The notes under the pieces are model-generated. The model had not been told where the DNA came from, made no database searches, and worked only from the letters and a program-made list of their open reading frames with translations. Positions 24,922-48,491 of a DNA stretch of 64,000 bases are shown here, in pieces (position 1 is the stretch's first letter; each line of letters opens with the position of its first letter). Origin of the DNA: an uncultured Thermoplasmata archaeon. Its GTDB lineage: Archaea; Thermoplasmatota; Thermoplasmata; UBA10834. The position numbers and the translations under genes are program-made. Where the stretch lies: contig CAZMPY010000026.1 of NCBI GenBank assembly GCA_964568665.1, positions 62,106 to 126,105 on the forward strand, read 5' to 3'.

Positions 24922-25002
24922 CAATCCTCCTCCCCCCTCGCGCGCCCCCACTGCGAAAATCATAGGGATTATCTACGGGCCGGGCCATCACTCAGCTGCA
25001 CC

Positions 25003-38679: not shown

Positions 38680-40593
38680 TCACTTCAGCCTGATGGTCTC
38701 GAGGTTCATCGGCGCCCTGGTCTCGATCCCGAACTTCTTGTAGACGGTGCTCGCGAGATCGGAGCACTTGAAGTCCTCGCCGTGGCCGATGATGATCCTC
38801 TCCGGCCTCGGCTCCAGCGTGCTTATGTAGTTGATGAGCTGCCGCCTGTCCGAATGGCCAGAGAACCCGTCGACCGTCTCGACATCCATCTTCATGTGGA
38901 GCAGCAGGGGCTTCCCCCTGTCGTTGAGAGTGATGTCGTTCCAGCCCTTCTGCAGCTTCCTGCCCATGGTGCTCTCCCCCTGGTAACCGACGAACACGAG
39001 CGTGCTCTGGGGGTTGTCGCACCAGGCCTTGAAGTACTCCATGACGGGCCCGCCGTTCATCATGCCGCTCGTCGCGAGCACGACGCAGGGCTCTGGGTCG
39101 TTGCAGATGCGCTCCCTCATGTCGGCGCTGTCGACGCGCTTGAAGATGTCCGATAGGAATGGGTTCTCGCCCATCTGGAATATCTGGGTCCTGAGCTGGC
39201 TGTTGAGGTACTCCGGATACGCGGTGTGGATCGCCGTCGCCTCCCAGATCATGCCGTCCAGGTATATCGGCGCCTTCTGGATCTGGTGGTTCCTCATCAG
39301 CTCCTCGAGAACGAGCATGAGCTCCTGGGACCTGCCGACCGCGAAGACGGGGATGAGCACCTTGCCACCCCTGCCGAGCGTGGCCCTGACGATCTCCTTG
39401 AGCTGGCCCGCGGCCTCCTGTCTGCTGGGCTGCATGTCGTGGTACCCTCCGTACGTCGACTCGATCACGAGGGTCTCGAGCCTCGGGAACTTGTTGACGG
39501 CCGGGTTGAAGAGCCACGATTTCTCGAACTTGATGTCTCCGGAGAACGCGATGTTGTAGAGCCCGTCGCCGACATGGAAGTGGGCGATCGCCGAGCCGAG
39601 GATGTGCCCAGCGTTCTGGAATGTCAGGCGGACATCGGGCGAGATGTCCGTCGTCTCCCCGTACTTGAGCGGGATGCAGTGCATGACCGTCTCGCGCACG
39701 TGCGACGACTCGTACGGGGGTTTCTTCGCCTCGCCTACCGCCACTTTGATGAAGTCCAGCTGCAGCAGGGACATCAGGTCCCTCGTCGGGGCGGTGCAGT
39801 AGACCGGTCCATCGTAGCCGTACTTGAAGAGTGCGGGCACGAGGCCGCAGTGGTCCAGATGCGCGTGCGTGACGATGACGCCGTCGATCGAGTCCAGGGG
39901 CTGCAGCTCCGGCGCGTTCAGGTACGGTGTCGACCCGTTGTCGTCCGCGGACACGGCCACCCCGCAGTCGATGAGCACCTTGCTCTCGCGTGTCATGAGC
40001 AGGGCCGCGCTCCTGCCGACCTCACGGAACCCTCCGAGGGCAGTCACCCTCAGGAAGCTGTCGTCGGAGATCTTCTGACGCATGAGGCGCCGGCCGACCT
40101 TGTGCAGGAACTCCTTGCGCTCGTCCTGGACCTTCCTGAGGTAGTTCCTGATCTCGCTGACGGTCTTGGACGGGATCGGAGGCGCTCTCACGACCTTCGG
40201 CGCCCAGCCAATCTCTTTCTTGATCTCGTTCAGGACGGCCCCGTGCTTGCCGATCACGAGCCCTGGTGAGATGGCCTCGATGGTCACCTCCCCGGTGTCG
40301 TCCTCGAAGTAGATGTTCGTGATCTTCGCTTCTTCAGGGATGATCTTCCGGATCTGCTCCTCGGCGTTCCCGGTCTCGGCCAGCATCGTCGGATCTGGCC
40401 TGATGGCCACCCTGCGGCGCAGCGTCTGCGCGAGCTGGCGCACGAGGTCGTTGTTGTGGGCGAACTCCTCGAGGTTCCTCGTGTATATGACGATTACAGG
40501 TCCCTCGAAGTCCACGTCGGTGACCTCGATGTGTGAGGGGATGGTCTTCTTGACCGCCTCCCGCGCGTCTTCTAGAATCTTCTCTATGCCCAT
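38680..40593 (-). CDS. fttA: aCPSF1/FttA beta-CASP ribonuclease with N-terminal KH domains
   Basis: KH region (DFEGP, KPG-like GLVIGKHG), GGFREVGRS, THAHLDH, AGHILGS, ESTYG, FSGHSD. Confidence 0.95.
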   Translation of the reverse strand: MGIEKILEDAREAVKKTIPSHIEVTDVDFEGPVIVIYTRNLEEFAHNNDLVRQLAQTLRRRVAIRPDPTMLAETGNAEEQIRKIIPEEAKITNIYFEDDTGEVTIEAISPGLVIGKHGAVLNEIKKEIGWAPKVVRAPPIPSKTVSEIRNYLRKVQDERKEFLHKVGRRLMRQKISDDSFLRVTALGGFREVGRSAALLMTRESKVLIDCGVAVSADDNGSTPYLNAPELQPLDSIDGVIVTHAHLDHCGLVPALFKYGYDGPVYCTAPTRDLMSLLQLDFIKVAVGEAKKPPYESSHVRETVMHCIPLKYGETTDISPDVRLTFQNAGHILGSAIAHFHVGDGLYNIAFSGDIKFEKSWLFNPAVNKFPRLETLVIESTYGGYHDMQPSRQEAAGQLKEIVRATLGRGGKVLIPVFAVGRSQELMLVLEELMRNHQIQKAPIYLDGMIWEATAIHTAYPEYLNSQLRTQIFQMGENPFLSDIFKRVDSADMRERICNDPEPCVVLATSGMMNGGPVMEYFKAWCDNPQSTLVFVGYQGESTMGRKLQKGWNDITLNDRGKPLLLHMKMDVETVDGFSGHSDRRQLINYISTLEPRPERIIIGHGEDFKCSDLASTVYKKFGIETRAPMNLETIRLK

Positions 40594-40668
40594 CTGTTCA
40601 CTCAACTGAATCGAATACCCGTGAATGGTCTGCGGCGGCGTGGCAGCCGCCGTGCGCATCCGGCCCGC

Positions 40669-41307
40669 TCAGGCCAGCTTCATCTTCGCTAGGCGCCTCT
40701 GGATCTCCTTCTCATCGAGCTGGTCGAAGCCGTCCTTTGTGATGGAGCAGACCGCGATGCCATCGCCTGAGGCGGAGTCGCGCTTCATCGCGGCGTGGAG
40801 TGCTCTGACCGCAAGGTCCAGCCCGTCCGACACGCTCAAGCCCTTCTGGAAGTGGTCCTCGAGGACACCGTAGACATAGGGTGAGCCGGACCCGGTCGTC
40901 ACATAGTCGTCCGGGATGGAGCCGCCTACCATGTCCAGCGAGTAGACATGCGGTCCGTCCTTGTCGAAGCCTCCCATGATGAGTCCGACATAGTATGGAT
41001 AGTACCTGTTCCCGGCCAGTATGTTGGCCATGAGGGTGGATGCGGACTTGACTGTCATGGGCGCTCCCCGCTTGAGCTTATAGAGTTCGACCTCGGCCAT
41101 GATGTACCTCGCCAAGGTCTGAGCGTCGCCGACGACCCCTGCGACCGTGAGGCCGATGTTGTCATCTATCTTGAAAAGCTTCTGCGTGGTCTTGTGTGCG
41201 ATCAGAGTGCCCATCGTGGCCCTCATCTCCGTGGCCATGACCACGCCGTCCTTGCAGACGATACCGACCGTCGTTGTACCCTTCTTGACCTGTTCAGTGT
41301 TGTCCAT
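40669..41307 (-). CDS. psmB: Proteasome beta subunit
   Basis: Short propeptide then GTTTVG, RAT, GSGS, RDSASG; conserved adjacency to aCPSF1. Confidence 0.96.
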   Translation of the reverse strand: MDNTEQVKKGTTTVGIVCKDGVVMATEMRATMGTLIAHKTTQKLFKIDDNIGLTVAGVVGDAQTLARYIMAEVELYKLKRGAPMTVKSASTLMANILAGNRYYPYYVGLIMGGFDKDGPHVYSLDMVGGSIPDDYVTTGSGSPYVYGVLEDHFQKGLSVSDGLDLAVRALHAAMKRDSASGDGIAVCSITKDGFDQLDEKEIQRRLAKMKLA

Positions 41308-41438
41308 GAAATAACACCGTCGTGAAAACTGACGCACTAAAAGTGGTTTTCAGAAGTATAATCGTGCACGTATTTATCCTTTCGCCCACTGGACGCGCGG
41401 TCCAGCGGACGACGAGAAGGTTTAAGTCCTCGCGGAAT

Positions 41439-41567
41439 CAATGGAATCCTGAGATGGGTAGCCTGTGAGTCCCTTCCATGTAAGCACGCAACCTTTCGAG
41501 GACACGTGCTCCAAACTTCAATGGAGGAAGGGCGTGGCGTCAGGAATACCATTGCCTGCCCATCTCA
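41439..41567 (+). ncRNA. Candidate structured non-coding RNA (unknown class)
   Basis: Nested helices 41450-41461/41556-41567, 41471-41477/41526-41532, 41483-41488/41505-41510, a UUCG-capped tip at 41492-41501, and a dedicated TTTAAG box at 41421-41426. Confidence 0.55.
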
Positions 41568-41635
41568 CCCCAACTCCACCCCTGAACAACGCTATATACC
41601 ATTTAGTCGTTCCGAGTCTGACGGAGGCGTGACCC

Positions 41636-41998
41636 TTGACCAAGATCCTCGTGGTGGATGATTCCGAGGCATTCAGGAAGGTTATGATAGAGCTGCTCGT
41701 GAGAGCAGGCTTCCATGATGTCGCCGAGGCGAAGGACTTCGACGAGGCCCTCGACAAGTTCAGACAGGAGAGGCCCAGGTTCACGTTCGTCGACATGATC
41801 CTGCCTGGGAAGTCCGGCGTGGACCTCACCAAGGCGCTGATCGCGATCGACCCCAACGCGACGATAATCGCCATGAGTTCGATCATCAACAAGACCATGA
41901 TCCGGCAGAGCCTGGACGCAGGTGCCAAGGACTTCCTCCTGAAGCCCACTAACACGATAGCCCTGAGCTCGGTCCTGGCGATGTGGAGTGATTGGTGA
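41636..41998 (+). CDS. Stand-alone response regulator receiver (CheY-like)
   Basis: ILVVDD, phospho-Asp FVDMILP..SG, AMSS, FLLKP. Confidence 0.92.
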   Translation: MTKILVVDDSEAFRKVMIELLVRAGFHDVAEAKDFDEALDKFRQERPRFTFVDMILPGKSGVDLTKALIAIDPNATIIAMSSIINKTMIRQSLDAGAKDFLLKPTNTIALSSVLAMWSDW

Positions 41999-42558
41999 TG
42001 AGCCTGTTCCATTTCAAGAGGCCAGGGGCGAGGAAGGACCACAAGGAGTCGGCCCTCGACATATCCCGCAAGTACTCGCTCAAACAGGGCCGGTCCTACG
42101 TGATCGAGGAGTCGCCCCCGGACATCAGCTTCGACGCGTTCGCCAACATCATCAACACGACGGACGAGAAGGGCGCGAAGAACGTCGGCCTGTGCATCAC
42201 GCGCCAGCACCCAGACCTGGTCCGGCAGAAGTACGGCATCGAGAAGACGCCGATATACTGGCTCGCGACCAAGACCGGCCAGGACATCATATCGCCCACG
42301 AACCTCGGCATACTAACGCACACGATCATCAGCTTCGTCCAGGACCACCAGAACGGGGTGGTCCTCCTCGACGGGCTCGAGTACCTGGTCTCGAACAACG
42401 ATTTCAACAAGGTCCTCAGGGTCATAGACCAGGTCAACGACCACATCTCCCAGAGCACCTCGAGGATGATCCTCCCGGTGGACCCGCGCGCGTTCGATCC
42501 GAAGGAGGTCGCCCTCCTCGAGCGGAACATGGAGAAGGTCCAGTTGTCCAAGGCGTAG
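41992..42558 (+). CDS. Stand-alone DUF835 (inactive KaiC/RecA-like) protein
   Basis: GLCITRQHP, IYWL, ISPTNL, VVLLDGLEYL..NNDF; coupled to the receiver gene. Confidence 0.85.
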   Translation: MVMSLFHFKRPGARKDHKESALDISRKYSLKQGRSYVIEESPPDISFDAFANIINTTDEKGAKNVGLCITRQHPDLVRQKYGIEKTPIYWLATKTGQDIISPTNLGILTHTIISFVQDHQNGVVLLDGLEYLVSNNDFNKVLRVIDQVNDHISQSTSRMILPVDPRAFDPKEVALLERNMEKVQLSKA

Positions 42559-42575: not shown

Positions 42576-44423
42576 CTAGGACGCGAGGAGCGCGGTCGCC
42601 GAGTATATCAGCTCGGACAGCACGATGCACGACCCCAGCGAGTACGCCAGTTGCCGCCTGCCCTTGCCGCCTTCGATGCCCCACACGAAGAACACCACCA
42701 CCGCGTTGATCTCGGCCAGGAACAGCCCGAGCACGAGGAACAGCGCATCGGCGGAGAAGCCACCGTCCCCCGCCCCGAGCGAGGACAACGACAGGTAGAT
42801 CGAGTATGTTATCCCGAGGACCAGCGGGCCCAGCGCGTGCGCGGTCATGCGCATCATCGATATCGTCGGCCTCAGCCTGCTCTTGAGCGTGCTCTCGAGG
42901 TCGTTCAGGTCCTTGAGGTAGTTCGCCAGGTCCATCGCCAGGAGACCCGCCGAGAGCTCGTCCTTCGACGCCGCCTCGCGGACGACCTGGAGCCCGGCCA
43001 GGGCGTTCAACCCCCCGCGGACGTCTTGCTCCCCGGCCCCCTCCGCGAACCCTTGGCCCATTATGCTCGTCCTGAGGGACAGGGCCCTCAGCCTCACGCC
43101 CTCCTCGCCATCGAGCTCGGAGGACGCCCTCGCCATGGCCGATTCGAAGTTCTCGCCCTCCAGCATCCTGGCGCCGGTCTTGAACAGGGCGTCCTCGAAC
43201 CCCTCCGAGGACCCGGCGCCTGCCATGCTTCTCATTCCCCCCGCCATCAAGAATGCGCCGACGGGGCAGGTCGTTCCCAGGAGCAGGCCCAGGGCCCTCT
43301 CGTGCCCCGACAGGAACATGAGCGACACCGCGGCCGCGCACGCGGCCGCGGCGGCTGCGGCCAAGACCAGCAGCCCGGAGTGTTCCATCGGCACGTCCGC
43401 GCGCCAGGGCCGCACGTCGAGCGGATGCCTCTGGACCGCATCCATGGCCACGAGGACCGCGATCGCGGGGAACAGGATGTTCATCAGGAATATCGTCTGG
43501 ACTATGGTCCCGCCCCCGGACGAGCCGAGGTCCGGGCCCGCCTCCACGCCGGCCCATAGGTCCCACGAGAGCATCGGCAGGAACGAGCCGACCATCAGAG
43601 GCAGGAGGATGCCGACGCCGAAGATCACCATGCTCGGCGTCGACAACGCAAGGGCGTACTCCTCTATCCTGCGCTTGGCCCCTGAGATCATCGCGTGGCT
43701 CGCCCGGTCGAGCGCCCTGCGCTTGCCCTCCTCCCTCGATTCGCATGCCGCCGTGACCATCGCGTTCAGCGAGGCCTTGAGGTCCCCGCTGAACCTGGAC
43801 CATCTCGCGCCCAGCGCCTGGAGCGCCTCCTCGAAGCTCGAGTGCTTTCCCATGACGACCTCCCAGACGGAAGCCTTCAGCTCCTCCGTGAACTCGTCCT
43901 CGCGCTGCATCGCGAACCTCATGGCCTTCGAGACGGAAGGCTCGTGCCTGAGGCTCATGATCATCAGGTTGGTGGCCGCCGTCGAGTCCTTCAGTATGCT
44001 CTGGGCGCGCTTTGCTGCGAGATTCGCAGGGTAGCCCATCACGGCCTCCCTGGCGAGGACGGGTACGACGGCGAGCAGGAATGCGAGCGGGACGATGTAC
44101 CGAGTGCCGGTGAGCAGGAACGCGACGGCAGCGGCCACGCCCAGCCCGAGCGCGGCAAGGAGCATGACCGTCTTCGAGGCGGCGACCACGGTCTCTGGCG
44201 TGAGAGGGACCCTCGCGAGGCTCAGGTTCTCCCCGAGCACCTTCATCGTGCGGTCGGCCTTGGCTGCCCTGCCGCTCTCGGCGCGCCCTCGGCCACCCCT
44301 TCTGGCGCTGGCGGCCTCCGCCCTTCCGGAGACGCCCAGGCCCGAACCGAGGCGCGCGAGTAAGGCGCATGAGCGCTCGTACATCTCACCGGGCCGCTTG
44401 ACGCAGGCACTAGCTCGACTCAA
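42576..44423 (-). CDS. Type IV pilus/T2SS-F platform membrane protein (TadC/ArlJ-like)
   Basis: Two cytoplasmic domains each followed by TM clusters (SLRHEPS, SFEEAL; MLEGENFESA, LRPTISMM); directly downstream of the pilus ATPase; exact start uncertain. Confidence 0.72.
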   Translation of the reverse strand: MSRASACVKRPGEMYERSCALLARLGSGLGVSGRAEAASARRGGRGRAESGRAAKADRTMKVLGENLSLARVPLTPETVVAASKTVMLLAALGLGVAAAVAFLLTGTRYIVPLAFLLAVVPVLAREAVMGYPANLAAKRAQSILKDSTAATNLMIMSLRHEPSVSKAMRFAMQREDEFTEELKASVWEVVMGKHSSFEEALQALGARWSRFSGDLKASLNAMVTAACESREEGKRRALDRASHAMISGAKRRIEEYALALSTPSMVIFGVGILLPLMVGSFLPMLSWDLWAGVEAGPDLGSSGGGTIVQTIFLMNILFPAIAVLVAMDAVQRHPLDVRPWRADVPMEHSGLLVLAAAAAAACAAAVSLMFLSGHERALGLLLGTTCPVGAFLMAGGMRSMAGAGSSEGFEDALFKTGARMLEGENFESAMARASSELDGEEGVRLRALSLRTSIMGQGFAEGAGEQDVRGGLNALAGLQVVREAASKDELSAGLLAMDLANYLKDLNDLESTLKSRLRPTISMMRMTAHALGPLVLGITYSIYLSLSSLGAGDGGFSADALFLVLGLFLAEINAVVVFFVWGIEGGKGRRQLAYSLGSCIVLSELIYSATALLAS

Positions 44424-46155
44424 ACCAATCCCTCCATTCTCTGAGCCCTGCCTCTGGCCCGTCCGCCCCGAAGAGCGTCCGCGTGAGTAGCTCGTTCGAG
44501 GCCACCCTCTTCGCCTCAGGCGACGGTGTGCCTCCCGGGCACTGGGACGCGATGTCGTCCGCGTGCGCCCGCGTCTTTATGATGTCCAGGAGCGCCTCAG
44601 GGGAGACCCCGAGGGCGTCCGCGGCCCCCACGATCGTCTTGCACGATGGTGAGAACTGCTCGGTGGGCTTCGCGCAGGTGCAGCCGGGCCGGATCTCGAA
44701 GAGGCTCACCAGCTCCACCCCGTGGCCCTTGTCCCGCACCTCCGCGACCTCGGTCACGCGCCTGTGGAACCTGGCACCGTCCGGCGACCTGATCAGGCCT
44801 ATCACGACGACGATGTCGGTGGACGAGAACGCCCGTTCCGAGACCCCCAGGTCCTCGACGGCCCTGTCGACGACGCCCTTGGCGGAGTTGCCGTGGATCG
44901 TGCCGAGCACCGATGACCCTGCGCTGCCCGCGCGCATGCTCTCGTAGAGCACCTTTGCCTCCTCCCCCCTCACCTCGCCGATCACGATCGCGCTCTCGCC
45001 CATCCTGAGGCTGACCCTGAGCGTGTCCTGGGCCGATATGTCCGCCCCGTCCTGGCCGTTGGAGAACCTGAGCGCCTGGAGGTCGAACCCGAGGTCCTGC
45101 AGTTTCCTGACGGGTATCTCGGGGGTGTCCTCTATGAGCACGATCCTCTGGGATAGCGGGAACTCGAGCAGCATGGCCCCGAGGAGCGATGTCTTCCCCG
45201 CCCCCCTGCTGCCCGCGACGAGCACCGTCCTGCGGCCCAGCACGCAGGCCCACAGGAAGCTCGCCAGGAGCGGGGACATCGAGCCGTTCGCTACCAGGCG
45301 AGGCATCGTCCACATCACATCGGAATGCTTCCTTATCGCGACGGACAGGCCTTTGTCGCTCAGCGGGGGCCCTACGACGGTCACCCTCGCGCCCAGGTGC
45401 CTCATGTCGGCCTCGAGCACAGGATGCGCCTCCGAGAACGGGAGACCTGTCTCGAACTTGACCCTCGAGACCATCCCGAGCAGGTCGCGTCTGCCGAGGA
45501 ATATGTTCGTCCGACACTTCTGTCGGACACCAGGCACCGCGCCGGACCGCAGCACGACCTGGACGGGCGTCTGACTGGATGGGGAGTCCACATAGATGTC
45601 TTGGACGGTCGGGTCCTCGAGGAGGGTCTCGAGCAGACCATACCCCGCGGTGTACTTCGAGAGCAGCTCGGCGAGGAAATCCGCATCCTTGTCGATCTCG
45701 CGTCCATCGGCGCCTCCGCCCTTCGCCGCGAGCTTTGCGTAGAGCAGGTCCTTCGCCCTCGCCTTGATGTACGGGCGGACCGTGCTCAGAGAGCCGGACT
45801 CTATGTCCGGGGGGACGATGCTGGTGACATCCGACATGGCCTCCCCGAGGATCTGCATCTGGGCCGGTCCGAGCCGGTATTCAGGAGGGTCGACCATGTA
45901 GAGCCCGCAGCTGGAGTCCTTCGGGGACATGATTGTCACAGTGACCCCCGCCACAGTGTACTTGGATACGACTGGCGCCTCGCCGGCCTCCGGCTGGACG
46001 ATCCATGACGACGAGAAGCAGGGCCGGGTCTCGAACACGGCGCGGGCGCGCGTGTCGCGCCCGCCCTCGTGCGTGACTAAAGGGACCGCGTTGACAGCCG
46101 GCCTTGACAGGGGCAGCTTCGAGCCGACGATCCGGGGAGGTCCTCTGCCAGGCAA
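44410..46155 (-). CDS. Type II/IV secretion ATPase (TadA/VirB11/ArlI family)
   Basis: GYGLLE.LL.DP..QDIYV, Walker A GSRGAGKTS, Asp box IEDTPE, IGEVRG, His box GTIHG. Confidence 0.92.
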   Translation of the reverse strand: MPGRGPPRIVGSKLPLSRPAVNAVPLVTHEGGRDTRARAVFETRPCFSSSWIVQPEAGEAPVVSKYTVAGVTVTIMSPKDSSCGLYMVDPPEYRLGPAQMQILGEAMSDVTSIVPPDIESGSLSTVRPYIKARAKDLLYAKLAAKGGGADGREIDKDADFLAELLSKYTAGYGLLETLLEDPTVQDIYVDSPSSQTPVQVVLRSGAVPGVRQKCRTNIFLGRRDLLGMVSRVKFETGLPFSEAHPVLEADMRHLGARVTVVGPPLSDKGLSVAIRKHSDVMWTMPRLVANGSMSPLLASFLWACVLGRRTVLVAGSRGAGKTSLLGAMLLEFPLSQRIVLIEDTPEIPVRKLQDLGFDLQALRFSNGQDGADISAQDTLRVSLRMGESAIVIGEVRGEEAKVLYESMRAGSAGSSVLGTIHGNSAKGVVDRAVEDLGVSERAFSSTDIVVVIGLIRSPDGARFHRRVTEVAEVRDKGHGVELVSLFEIRPGCTCAKPTEQFSPSCKTIVGAADALGVSPEALLDIIKTRAHADDIASQCPGGTPSPEAKRVASNELLTRTLFGADGPEAGLREWRDWFESS

Positions 46156-48176: not shown

Positions 48177-48404
48177 ATGGAACCCGCCAACAAGCCGACC
48201 GACGAGTCGTACACCCACGAGGAGCGGATCGTCCTGGCGTCGCTCAGGAAGTCGTCCCGGCGCACGTGCAAATACTGCGCCTGGCTGTCGATGCGAGGTC
48301 AGCAGCGCGGATGCTTCCCCGAGGGGAAGTACAGGAAGTTCCTCTCCCCGGATGAATATGATTCGGGTTGCGAGCGGTTCGCCGCGAGGGTCGTGAAGGC
48401 GTGA
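48177..48404 (+). CDS. Small Cys-rich hypothetical protein
   Basis: TCKYC...GCF...GCERF; own TATA-like box (CTATATAA ~48112). Confidence 0.65.
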   Translation: MEPANKPTDESYTHEERIVLASLRKSSRRTCKYCAWLSMRGQQRGCFPEGKYRKFLSPDEYDSGCERFAARVVKA

Positions 48405-48406
48405 GG

Positions 48407-48491
48407 TGCAGGGGCGCGGATTCGAACCGCGGAACCACTTCTGGACAAGGTCCTAAGCCTTGCGCCGTTGGCCGGACTTGGCTACCCCTGC
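48407..48491 (-). tRNA. tRNA-Leu(TAG), full CCA not encoded
   Basis: Reverse complement GCAGGGG...CCCCTGC-A; anticodon arm CAAGG-CTTAGGA-CCTTG; long variable arm; GGTTCGAATCC. Confidence 0.96.

Follow-up and report, generated by a model that had tools for sequence, protein, structure and literature searches.

The structured RNA families described in archaea are few once the universal families, the guide RNAs and a small number of riboswitches are set aside, and to our knowledge almost nothing is known of the structured RNAs of uncultured Thermoplasmata. The universal 5S rRNA has a helix I that closes loop A, unbranched arms II-III and IV-V, and loop E and loop C motifs. C/D box sRNAs carry a C box (RUGAUGA) towards the 5' end and a D box (CUGA) towards the 3' end, which together form a K-turn, and H/ACA sRNAs combine an ACA (ANA) box just past the basal stem with a pseudouridylation pocket beneath an upper stem that has a K-turn or K-loop. 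RNase P RNA, at 200 nt or more, combines a P1-P5 and P15 core with the P4 pseudoknot formed by CR-I and CR-V. The TPP riboswitch occurs in Thermoplasmata, and we know of no tmRNA in archaea.

Here we describe a structured RNA gene of about 116 nt at positions 41451-41566 (plus strand) of a 64,000-nt stretch of DNA from an uncultured Thermoplasmata archaeon, hereafter the window. In several respects it is organized like the archaeal genes for tRNA, 5S rRNA and 7S SRP RNA: its BRE/TATA is positioned for a start close to or exactly at the predicted mature 5' end, a helix joins the two termini, and downstream comes a C/T-rich flank as in the tRNA genes of the window. Unlike these stable RNAs, it lacks their defining loops and motifs, matches none of their models and is found in one clade only. 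It also recalls the orphan RNAs of bacteria (raiA motif, OLE) and archaea (HgcC, SscA), which are stand-alone genes with a branched fold backed by covariation, strongly conserved within a single lineage, and with neighbours that give no evident function. Yet none of the four matches it in sequence or structure (Rfam 15), the RNA is much smaller than OLE and raiA, and here it is the helices, not the junctions, that are sequence-invariant.

Extent, distribution and fold

The RNA is present in 106 other genome or metagenome loci, which amount to 82 distinct sequences. An nhmmer search recovered it from 34 of 80 psmB loci (E 1e-14 to 5e-25), and a pattern scan added 72 metagenome loci. Homologues from the nhmmer, covariance-model and pattern searches measure 115-121 nt and differ by indels of 1-2 nt; a protein-coding reading of the segment was rejected on these length differences. 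There is a single copy in the window and one per locus. The boundaries of conservation coincide exactly with the two ends of the closing helix, and the RNA reaches 81% identity where psmB third codon positions reach 51%. Purifying selection on the RNA is strong. Models R1 and R2 detected no homologue in 45 more distant Thermoplasmata psmB loci, nor, with filters off, in two sister loci with kept synteny. The RNA is confined to one clade of uncultured (sediment) Thermoplasmata, where it always lies next to psmB; the contigs stem from freshwater sediment, wetland and groundwater. A search for a mobile-element origin gave no match to a viral contig, phage or plasmid.

The exact 116-nt unit folds at -44.6 kcal/mol (z = -3.3), a value equalled by none of 200 shuffles. 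The 160-nt span for which structure was originally predicted reaches a z of only -1.8. In the fold, an 8-bp helix, P1, closes a three-way junction with two arms, the long P2 arm and the hairpin P5. The long arm is built from P2, a conserved asymmetric internal loop and P2b, which carries the hairpins P3 and P4. The RNA is thus branched, with two junctions, rather than rod-like as had been suggested. Paired cells make up 99.8% and 99.6% across homologues (37-51% in slid controls), compensatory changes occur in 6-7 pairs (matched by 0 of 500 shuffles), and double-change cells number 48-49 against 13 +/- 2.5 in shuffles. Pairs are thus kept via compensatory substitutions beyond chance, as in a structured RNA.

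P1 joins GAGAUGGG (41451-41458) to CCCAUCUC (41559-41566). It is invariant in the 34 homologues whose retrieval did not use the P1 sequence, and shows a single A-U to G-U change with no compensatory support. A 12-bp stem had been proposed at this position. The complementarity does exist in the window and its outer 8 bp are conserved as P1, but its inner third gives way to P2 and P5: the UAG/CUG bases are engaged by these two helices, which show compensatory changes. A pair T41450-A41567 is not conserved. P2 consists of 3 bp, GCC (41461-41463) with GGC (41536-41538), and the invariant U41459 and A41460 lie directly 5' of it. Its third pair, the one of highest mutual information, is C-G in 29 sequences and A-U in 52, with no intermediates. 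The internal loop (41464-41470) reads U-R-U-A-A, G41469 and a bulged U41470, all invariant or nearly so, opposite N-U at 41534-41535.

P2b (8 bp) pairs G41469 and CCCUUCC (41471-41477) with GGAAGGGC (41526-41533) and has compensatory changes in three pairs (CG/UA/GC/UG; UA/CG/UG; CG/UA). In the P3 hairpin (41484-41509), GCACG (41484-41488) pairs with CGUGC (41505-41509), and one C-G to U-A change is seen in four sequences. Both helices belong to the original prediction, are present as CCCTTCC/GGAAGGG and GCACG/CGTGC, and are upheld by covariation counts. The apical stem of P3, CCU (41492-41494) with AGG (41499-41501), likewise foreseen as CCT-TTCG-AGG, draws its support mainly from per-sequence folds, in which it varies in length and sequence (CC/GG, GGUCGA/UCGACC, GCCG/CGGC, CAACC/GGUUG). 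P4 (41510-41525) is a variable short hairpin, UCCA...UGGA within an A-rich linker; most homologues have UCCAA/UUGGA or UCC-GAAA-GGA and some are without it. In P5 (41541-41558), CAGGAA (41541-41546) pairs with UUGCCUG (41552-41558), leaving G41554 unpaired. The stem is invariant apart from an inner A-U to U-A change in two sequences, and four bases of the 5-nt loop are variable.

Overall, compensatory support extends to five of six helices, with covariation counts for P2, P2b, P3 and P5. Since P1, P2, P3 and P5 are near-invariant, much of the fold rests on conservation and thermodynamics, and most of the compensatory changes may each go back to one evolutionary event. A mutual-information scan for further pairings or pseudoknots returned only the known helices and phylogenetic correlations. 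Read by sequence, the conserved loops gave no full fit to a K-turn, an 11-nt GNRA receptor, loop E or UAA/GAN.

Promoter, 3' flank and neighbouring genes

The RNA lies in the 328-bp intergenic region (41308-41635) between psmB (40669-41307, minus strand; Pfam PF00227), which is divergent from it, and a receiver-domain gene (41636-41998, plus; PF00072) followed by a DUF835 gene (41992-42558, plus; PF05763). The original prediction placed three TATA-like boxes in this region, for psmB, the RNA and the receiver gene, and all three are present at positions conserved in homologous loci. The box of the RNA gene, TTTAAG (41421-41426, plus; family consensus TTTAWS), is fixed at -30 to -25 from G41451, with T at -30 in 71 and at -29 in 75 of 81 homologues. 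Upstream of it stands a purine-rich, BRE-like GAGAAGG (41414-41420, plus): 76/81 homologues have A at -34 and 59/81 have A at -33, and a G-rich block comes before these positions. Position -1 is C or T and position +1 is G in 81/81. The arrangement is that of archaeal small-RNA-gene promoters, in which a BRE/TATA is centred some 26-27 nt upstream of a pyrimidine/purine initiator. The conserved spacing predicts transcription to start at G41451, the first base of P1. An A/T-rich AAT at 41440-41442 (plus; -11 to -9) is conserved as A, A and T in 64/81 each, which is attributable to a proximal promoter element and not to a competing helix formerly assigned to this segment.

Downstream of the RNA, the pyrimidine-rich flank ACCCCAACUCCACCCCU (41567-41583, plus) is the presumed termination or 3'-end region. 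Its first 12 nt are 82% pyrimidine across the family, it begins with ACC or CC in nearly all loci, and its C/T-richness resembles that of the flanks of the two tRNA genes in the window. No intrinsic-terminator-like site was found. A run of four or more T within 60 nt occurs in 16 of 82 sequences, and 66 of 82 lack an oligo-T terminator. The BRE/TATA of the receiver gene, AACAACGCTATATAC (41585-41599, plus; family consensus GGACAACGATAAATAC; TATA-like box at 41592-41599), is of the same type as that of psmB. It begins 10-50 nt past the RNA (median 16), a variable spacing, and is fixed at 65 +/- 5 nt from the VDD codons of the receiver gene. Given that most loci are without oligo-T and that the receiver promoter may follow P1 by 10-20 nt, read-through into the receiver gene is possible.

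On the other side, the psmB TATA box GGATAAATAC (41370-41379, minus) belongs to a conserved 5'UTR and promoter and is situated between psmB and the RNA. psmB neighbours the RNA in 100 of 100 loci reaching that far, with 143-162 nt between the RNA and the psmB start in all cases. The receiver-DUF835 pair is found co-oriented with the RNA in 103 of 105 loci reaching that far. L150 has lost the operon by deletion and a convergent gene comes next, yet its RNA is intact (132.7 bits); in L083 the receiver gene is lost and the RNA present; and L035 and L036 carry the receiver-DUF835 operon without the RNA. The fixed neighbours flank the RNA with a proteasome beta subunit and the termination factor FttA/aCPSF1 to one side and a receiver/inactive-KaiC signalling pair to the other. 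Exact copies of the receiver protein were found by look-up on metagenome contigs only. The RNA is no more complementary to the psmB leader than to shuffled sequence, and the two motifs of the invariant P1 strands find matches elsewhere in the window only as often as chance predicts.

Comparison with described RNA families

Scanned with Rfam 15 (4227 families) at gathering thresholds, the window gave no match; at E up to 10, positions 41300-41660 gave no relevant match and seven homologous loci none overlapping the RNA. Full-text literature searches on the invariant strings, on DUF835 and on Thermoplasmata non-coding RNAs turned up no description of the RNA. The C/D box class was rejected, with a RUGAUGA C box in 0 of 82 sequences and CUGA near the 3' end in 3, as was the H/ACA class, with ACA/ANA 0-3 nt past P1 in 0 of 82 and with conserved loops that, on sequence reading, are free of tandem G-A motifs. 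A 5S rRNA was discarded in the absence of an RF00001 match at E up to 10, its long arm here being itself branched and the RNA being absent near psmB in related lineages, against a universal distribution. The original prediction recognised no C/D, H/ACA, SRP, RNase P or 5S signature, and the Rfam and motif tests support that the RNA falls outside these classes. As far as these sequence and model comparisons reach, the RNA family is new, with no detectable relation to any described RNA.

A highly diverged 5S, SRP, RNase P, C/D or H/ACA RNA overlooked by the models was considered as well. Size and three-way junction recall 5S rRNA in outline; the strand AAG-U-CC, which belongs to a conserved helix and bulges out its U, is reminiscent of the P4 strand of RNase P RNA; and in the whole-window run the fast filters of Rfam did miss one real tRNA. 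However, the helix here is nested and local, in contrast to the long-range pseudoknot of P4, the 116-nt unit is about half the smallest known RNase P RNA, and none of the archaeal RNase P models matches it. Sensitive local searches of the window and the seven homologous loci returned nothing overlapping to E up to 10, and the absence from the sister lineage and from the 45 distant psmB loci misfits a universal RNA. We regard such an origin as highly improbable.

A tRNA-like or tRNA-derived RNA, with ends cut by tRNA-processing enzymes and a topology like that of the tRNA-like domain of tmRNA, is quite improbable too. P1 would here be the acceptor stem, UA-GCC...GGC-G the analogue of positions 8-9, the D-stem and position 26, and P5 would take the place of the T-arm. 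In effect, the 5' end GGG-UA-GCC-(3 nt)-AAGUCC resembles GGG-UA-GCC-AAGUCC of the class II tRNA-Leu in the window, the promoter and flank resemble those of tRNA genes, the flank offers its ACC or CC, and a terminal helix, a long arm with an inserted domain and a hairpin by the 3' strand parallel the tmRNA domain. Yet ARAGORN finds only a tRNA-Ser and a tRNA-Leu, both elsewhere in the window, and no tRNA or tmRNA at the RNA; the Rfam tRNA and tmRNA models are empty to E up to 10. Local alignment to the tRNAs of the window gives p = 0.32, the 8+6-nt resemblance to tRNA-Leu not being significant. There is no T loop, G18G19, anticodon arm, CCA or reading frame, and an NCCA tail occurs in 1 of 82 sequences.

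Probable mode of action

We put forward, with a probability of about 0.55, that 41451-41566 (plus) is a single-copy gene for a stable RNA of an undescribed family, a separate unit whose product is probably trans-acting and protein-bound. The RNA would be transcribed from its own BRE/TATA, beginning at G41451 and with paired ends, and would act in trans. Its likeliest role is that of the RNA component in a protein complex, to which the P1-P2-P5 junction, with helices of invariant sequence, and the internal loop may offer a recognition surface. It would not be a cis-acting sensor for the receiver-DUF835 operon. The homologues, the covariation and the conserved BRE/TATA support the central proposal of the original prediction, a novel structured RNA with its own promoter on the plus strand, and of the two functions envisaged there the trans-acting one is favoured. 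The other, a switch of read-through into the downstream genes, is unlikely, since the receiver operon has its own conserved promoter and the RNA is kept in L150.

The same evidence bears on a cis-acting leader, riboswitch-like or a protein-binding sensor, in which transcription from the RNA promoter enters receiver-DUF835 and the fold sets how much. We hold this to be fairly unlikely. The RNA is immediately upstream of and co-oriented with the operon in those 103 of 105 loci, most loci miss an oligo-T terminator, and a three-way junction that P1 closes, together with conserved nucleotides in the internal loop and peripheral stems that vary, is typical aptamer architecture, as in three-way-junction riboswitches (e.g., TPP). 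Unlike in these, a separate conserved promoter of psmB type, at a set distance from the gene but at varying distances from the RNA, intervenes; the genes downstream are signalling rather than metabolic or transport genes; the RNA outlasts the operon or its receiver gene in L150 and L083; and the sister lineage has the operon but not the RNA. An uninterrupted path from RNA to gene, an expression platform and a constant gene linkage are all lacking, and invariant helices with a variable junction strand are the reverse of the usual aptamer pattern. The competing helices once proposed, CAATGGAATCCTGA with TCAGGAATACCATTG and CAATGG with CCATTG, form in this window only: 60% and 49% of their cells pair in 34 homologues, a level that shuffled or slid controls also reach. 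The argument for bistability built on these two helices falls with them.

A two-state switch of another kind, in cis or in trans, is also unlikely. An extended-P1 rod of 11-12 bp (U9A10G11/C113U114G115) would alternate with the P2 and P5 junction, with a partner or ligand as the driving force. All 81 sequences can adopt either state, the nucleotides common to both are invariant, as dual use requires, and by nearest-neighbour energies the extended P1 is about 3 kcal/mol more stable while covariation backs P2 and P5. In contrast, P1, P3 and the remainder of P5 show the same degree of invariance, which is therefore not special; the extension is without covariation; energy models disregard junction stacking, tertiary contacts and proteins; and the alternative helices first proposed fail. 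The least probable reading of all is that there is no plus-strand RNA, and that the element either acts at the DNA level, as an operator or an inverted repeat serving the divergent promoters, or is a minus-strand RNA that belongs to psmB. The region is one of divergent promoters at a constant 143-162 nt from the psmB start, and over the 160-nt span the minus strand folds slightly better than the plus strand. However, all wobble pairs are G-U when read on the plus strand, and the 18 G-U-containing cells would turn into A-C mismatches on the other; model R2 scores 100-139 bits on the plus strand and at most 19 on the minus. A minus-strand or DNA-level element was rejected on these two grounds. 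Moreover, the psmB TATA intervenes between psmB and the element, and compensatory changes in the inner helices are unexpected for a protein-binding DNA site.

Returning to the favoured reading, a stable RNA acting in trans, the conservation pattern is unusual in combining invariant helices with a freely varying junction strand, which suggests either that the double-stranded parts are recognised by sequence or that there are alternative pairings. With exact boundaries, a canonical promoter, compensatory support and 82 natural variants, the RNA is a good experimental case, and its small size suits it to structure determination and to in vitro binding screens. The label "new" covers the RNA family and not a mechanism. 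Tentatively, and as a less probable proposal than the gene itself, this single-copy, near-invariant RNA of about 116 nt might represent a new archaeal RNA class, either a dedicated ribonucleoprotein or a ligand-responsive two-state regulator, belonging to one Thermoplasmata clade and with a function that may be tied to its fixed neighbours and would then be without counterpart among known RNA families.

Genomic setting and distribution of the RNA

The window has a G+C content of ~63%, and its closest relatives are MAGs labelled uncultured Thermoplasmata, Thermoplasmatota or 'Euryarchaeota archaeon RBG_13_57_23'. On the minus strand it carries the FttA/aCPSF1 gene (38680-40659) and psmB, encoding the proteasome beta subunit (40669-41307), and on the plus strand a receiver-domain gene (41636-41998) and a DUF835 gene (41992-42558). 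A published survey (PMC5847659) lists DUF835 among the output domains of archaeal response regulators, as an inactivated KaiC type. The original prediction placed a new RNA in the 328-bp intergenic region between psmB and the receiver gene; this length is borne out, and all the sequence features it listed are found in the window. Convergent to the receiver-DUF835 pair, the stretch 42576-46155 (minus strand) contains the gene of a 615-aa multi-pass membrane protein without Pfam match, together with a 581-aa ORF with the look of a FlaI/VirB11-type secretion ATPase, judged by reading the translation only.

Among 80 psmB loci taken from species-representative genomes, a single-sequence nhmmer search identified the element in 34 (E 1e-14 to 5e-25), in every case directly upstream of psmB and on the opposite strand. 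A pattern of two invariant blocks yielded 72 more loci from freshwater-sediment, wetland, soil and groundwater metagenomes; the same pattern had no match in viral contigs, and neither did BLAST of the RNA against phages and plasmids. Including the window, the collection comprises 107 loci, whose 82 distinct RNA sequences measure 115-121 nt. Gene order is practically invariant: psmB adjoins the RNA in 100/100 loci with a long enough contig, and the receiver gene lies downstream in 103 of 105. Covariance models detect the RNA exactly once at each locus and only once in the whole 64 kb of the window. On 45 more distant Thermoplasmata psmB loci they found no match, including the sister loci L035 and L036, in which the psmB/receiver/DUF835 order is kept and the spacer is unrelated (217-234 nt). 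The RNA unit occurs in a single clade, always next to psmB; its mean identity is 81%, versus 51% for psmB third codon positions in the same genomes. The spacer of the sister lineage (L035 3767-4000; L036 2587-2803) is A+T-richer, with inverted repeats of its own (e.g., CATCAGC...GCTGATG in L035).

Boundaries, fold and strand

The comparative data define a unit of 116 nt (41451-41566), with conservation ending abruptly at either edge of the closing helix P1. It folds at -44.6 kcal/mol (z = -3.3), a value equalled by none of 200 dinucleotide shuffles; the 160-nt span originally proposed is unimpressive (z = -1.8 on the plus strand, -2.05 on the minus). RNAalifold and manual reading of the alignments agreed on the plus-strand fold. 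The 8-bp P1 (41451-41458 with 41559-41566) is joined by an invariant UA to P2 (GCC/GGC, 41461-41463 with 41536-41538), followed by a conserved asymmetric internal loop, URUAA opposite NU, plus a bulged U, and by P2b, where G plus CCCUUCC pairs with GGAAGGGC. A second junction bears the hairpin P3 (GCACG/CGUGC), whose apical stem is variable, and the short variable hairpin P4, while the hairpin P5 (CAGGAA/UUGCCUG) starts two nucleotides 3' of P2 and abuts the 3' strand of P1.

With 81 distinct sequences aligned by MAFFT, 99.8% of the cells are paired, versus only 38-51% in slid controls of the fold, and compensatory double changes occur in six pairs. Double-change cells number 48, against 13 +/- 2.7 after shuffling, and the observed values were reached in 0 of 500 shuffles. 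A model-based alignment is concordant (99.6% paired, seven covarying pairs). Covariation is seen in one or more pairs of each helix but P1, and the third P2 pair, C-G in 29 sequences and A-U in 52 with no intermediates, ranks top in mutual information over the whole alignment. The apical stem of P3 varies in length and sequence with pairing kept. Several of the compensatory changes may each represent a single evolutionary event. The paired strands of P1, P2, P3 and P5 are invariant; free variation is seen in the junction strand leading to P3 as well as in the tip of P3, in P4 and in the loop of P5. Although the search pattern set the ends of the 72 metagenome sequences, the 34 genome-derived ones, retrieved via psmB, are equally invariant there. 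Wobble pairs and model scores both point to the plus strand: there, each of the 18 wobble cells reads G-U or U-G, corresponding to an A-C mismatch on the opposite strand, and R2, the covariance model built for the family, scores 100-139 bits on the RNA strand and no more than 19 bits on the other.

Some details of the original prediction need revising. The complementarity of its 12-bp terminal stem is real, but the closing helix is conserved only in the outer 8 bp; the outermost T-A pair is not conserved, and the inner UAG/CUG is used by P2 and P5 instead. Nearest-neighbour energies favour the extended stem by ~3 kcal/mol in all 81 sequences, which may reflect two states or simply shortcomings of the energy model. 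Those helices said to compete with the main stems, two in number, pair in 60% and 49% of cells, the control level, which leaves the claimed bistability unsupported. The seed of the first, a conserved AAT at -11 to -9, is better read as an A/T-rich proximal promoter element.

Transcription signals around the RNA

Upstream of the RNA, the family shares a G-rich block followed by A at -34 (76/81) and -33 (59/81), TTTAWS at -30 to -25 (its first two positions being T in 71-75 of the 81 sequences), the AAT element, C or T at -1 (81/81) and G at +1 (81/81). Such BRE/TATA/initiator spacing is standard archaeal geometry, and it puts the predicted start at G41451, where P1 begins. The core of the original prediction, a new non-coding RNA served by a promoter of its own, is right. 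In most loci a G[C/A]AGGG element is kept directly upstream of the BRE (41409-41414; -42 to -37 in homologs); it may either extend the BRE or be the site of a regulator acting in this divergent promoter region. The window also has a small G+C-rich hairpin, CTGGAC-GCGC-GGTCCAG (41388-41410), which lies between the RNA promoter and that of psmB and is not evident upstream in other loci. The psmB promoter (consensus GGACAAACAATTATATAC) and the ~40-nt psmB 5'UTR (41308-41379, minus strand) are conserved across ~77 loci; the 5'UTR blocks CGCCUUUUAGC and GUUUUCAnnGAnGGUGUU possibly form a small hairpin with a regulatory role ahead of the ribosome-binding site.

Termination signals are weak. The first 12 nt 3' of the RNA are 82% pyrimidine, a T run of at least 4 occurs within 60 nt in only 16/82 loci, and no bacterial-type terminator was found there. 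Since both tRNA genes of the window likewise have C/T-rich tracts without oligo-T runs directly 3' (24922-24950, 48370-48404), such a flank may be what normally follows a stable RNA gene in this lineage. TCATATAY TATA boxes lie upstream of both tRNA genes, whose flanks suggest that the stable RNA genes of these archaea do without classical T-tract terminators.

Known RNAs, the downstream operon and probable function

Rfam 15 gave no match for the RNA at gathering thresholds over the whole window. That run also missed a genuine tRNA-Leu(UAG) (48405-48491, minus strand), found by ARAGORN and scoring 52 bits locally; the fast filters can lose genuine RNAs, and we therefore relied on local runs, in which nothing with E up to 10 overlapped the RNA in this window and seven homologous loci. 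ARAGORN found neither tRNA nor tmRNA at the RNA, C and ACA/ANA boxes occur in 0/82 sequences, and a full-text literature search returned no description of it. With its bulged U, the AAG-U-CC strand is reminiscent of the P4 helix in RNase P RNA, but here the helix is nested and the RNA far too small. The overall topology resembles a tRNA-like domain and the 5' 22 nt (GGG-UA-GCC..AAGUCC) the tRNA-Leu of the window; kinship was rejected, as a T loop is absent and the similarity to tRNA-Leu is not significant (p = 0.32). A real, new family of structured RNA is well supported.

The original prediction also envisaged a switch controlling read-through into the receiver-DUF835 operon. A second conserved promoter, GGACAACGATAAATAC, closely similar to the psmB promoter, lies between the RNA and the receiver gene; it starts 10-50 nt 3' of the RNA (median 16, sd 8) and stands 65 +/- 5 nt from the conserved VDD codons of the receiver gene. 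In L150, a metagenome contig (3580-5564), the operon is deleted, with promoter and RNA intact (132.7 bits) and the end of a convergent FlaJ-like membrane-protein gene 62 nt 3' of the RNA; the membrane-protein gene seen in the window also adjoins the RNA there. In L083, another homologous locus (701-1562), the receiver gene is absent and a 180-nt G+C-rich spacer separates the RNA from the DUF835 gene. The separate promoter and these two loci make such a switch unlikely, and some read-through is possible given the weak termination signals.

Comparison of the loci establishes a conserved, structured, single-copy plus-strand unit with its own conserved promoter, probably transcribed as RNA. Elsewhere in the window its invariant strands have no more matches than expected by chance, and the psmB leader pairs with it no better than a shuffled sequence does. 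The conservation pattern does not point to a small-molecule pocket built from junction nucleotides; it suggests that helical surfaces are recognised by their sequence, or that alternative pairings form. Given its paired ends, a promoter and flank of stable-RNA type, persistence without the downstream operon and the unusual combination of invariant helices with variable junction strand, tips and loop, we infer that it would act in trans as a stable stand-alone RNA, most likely protein-bound.
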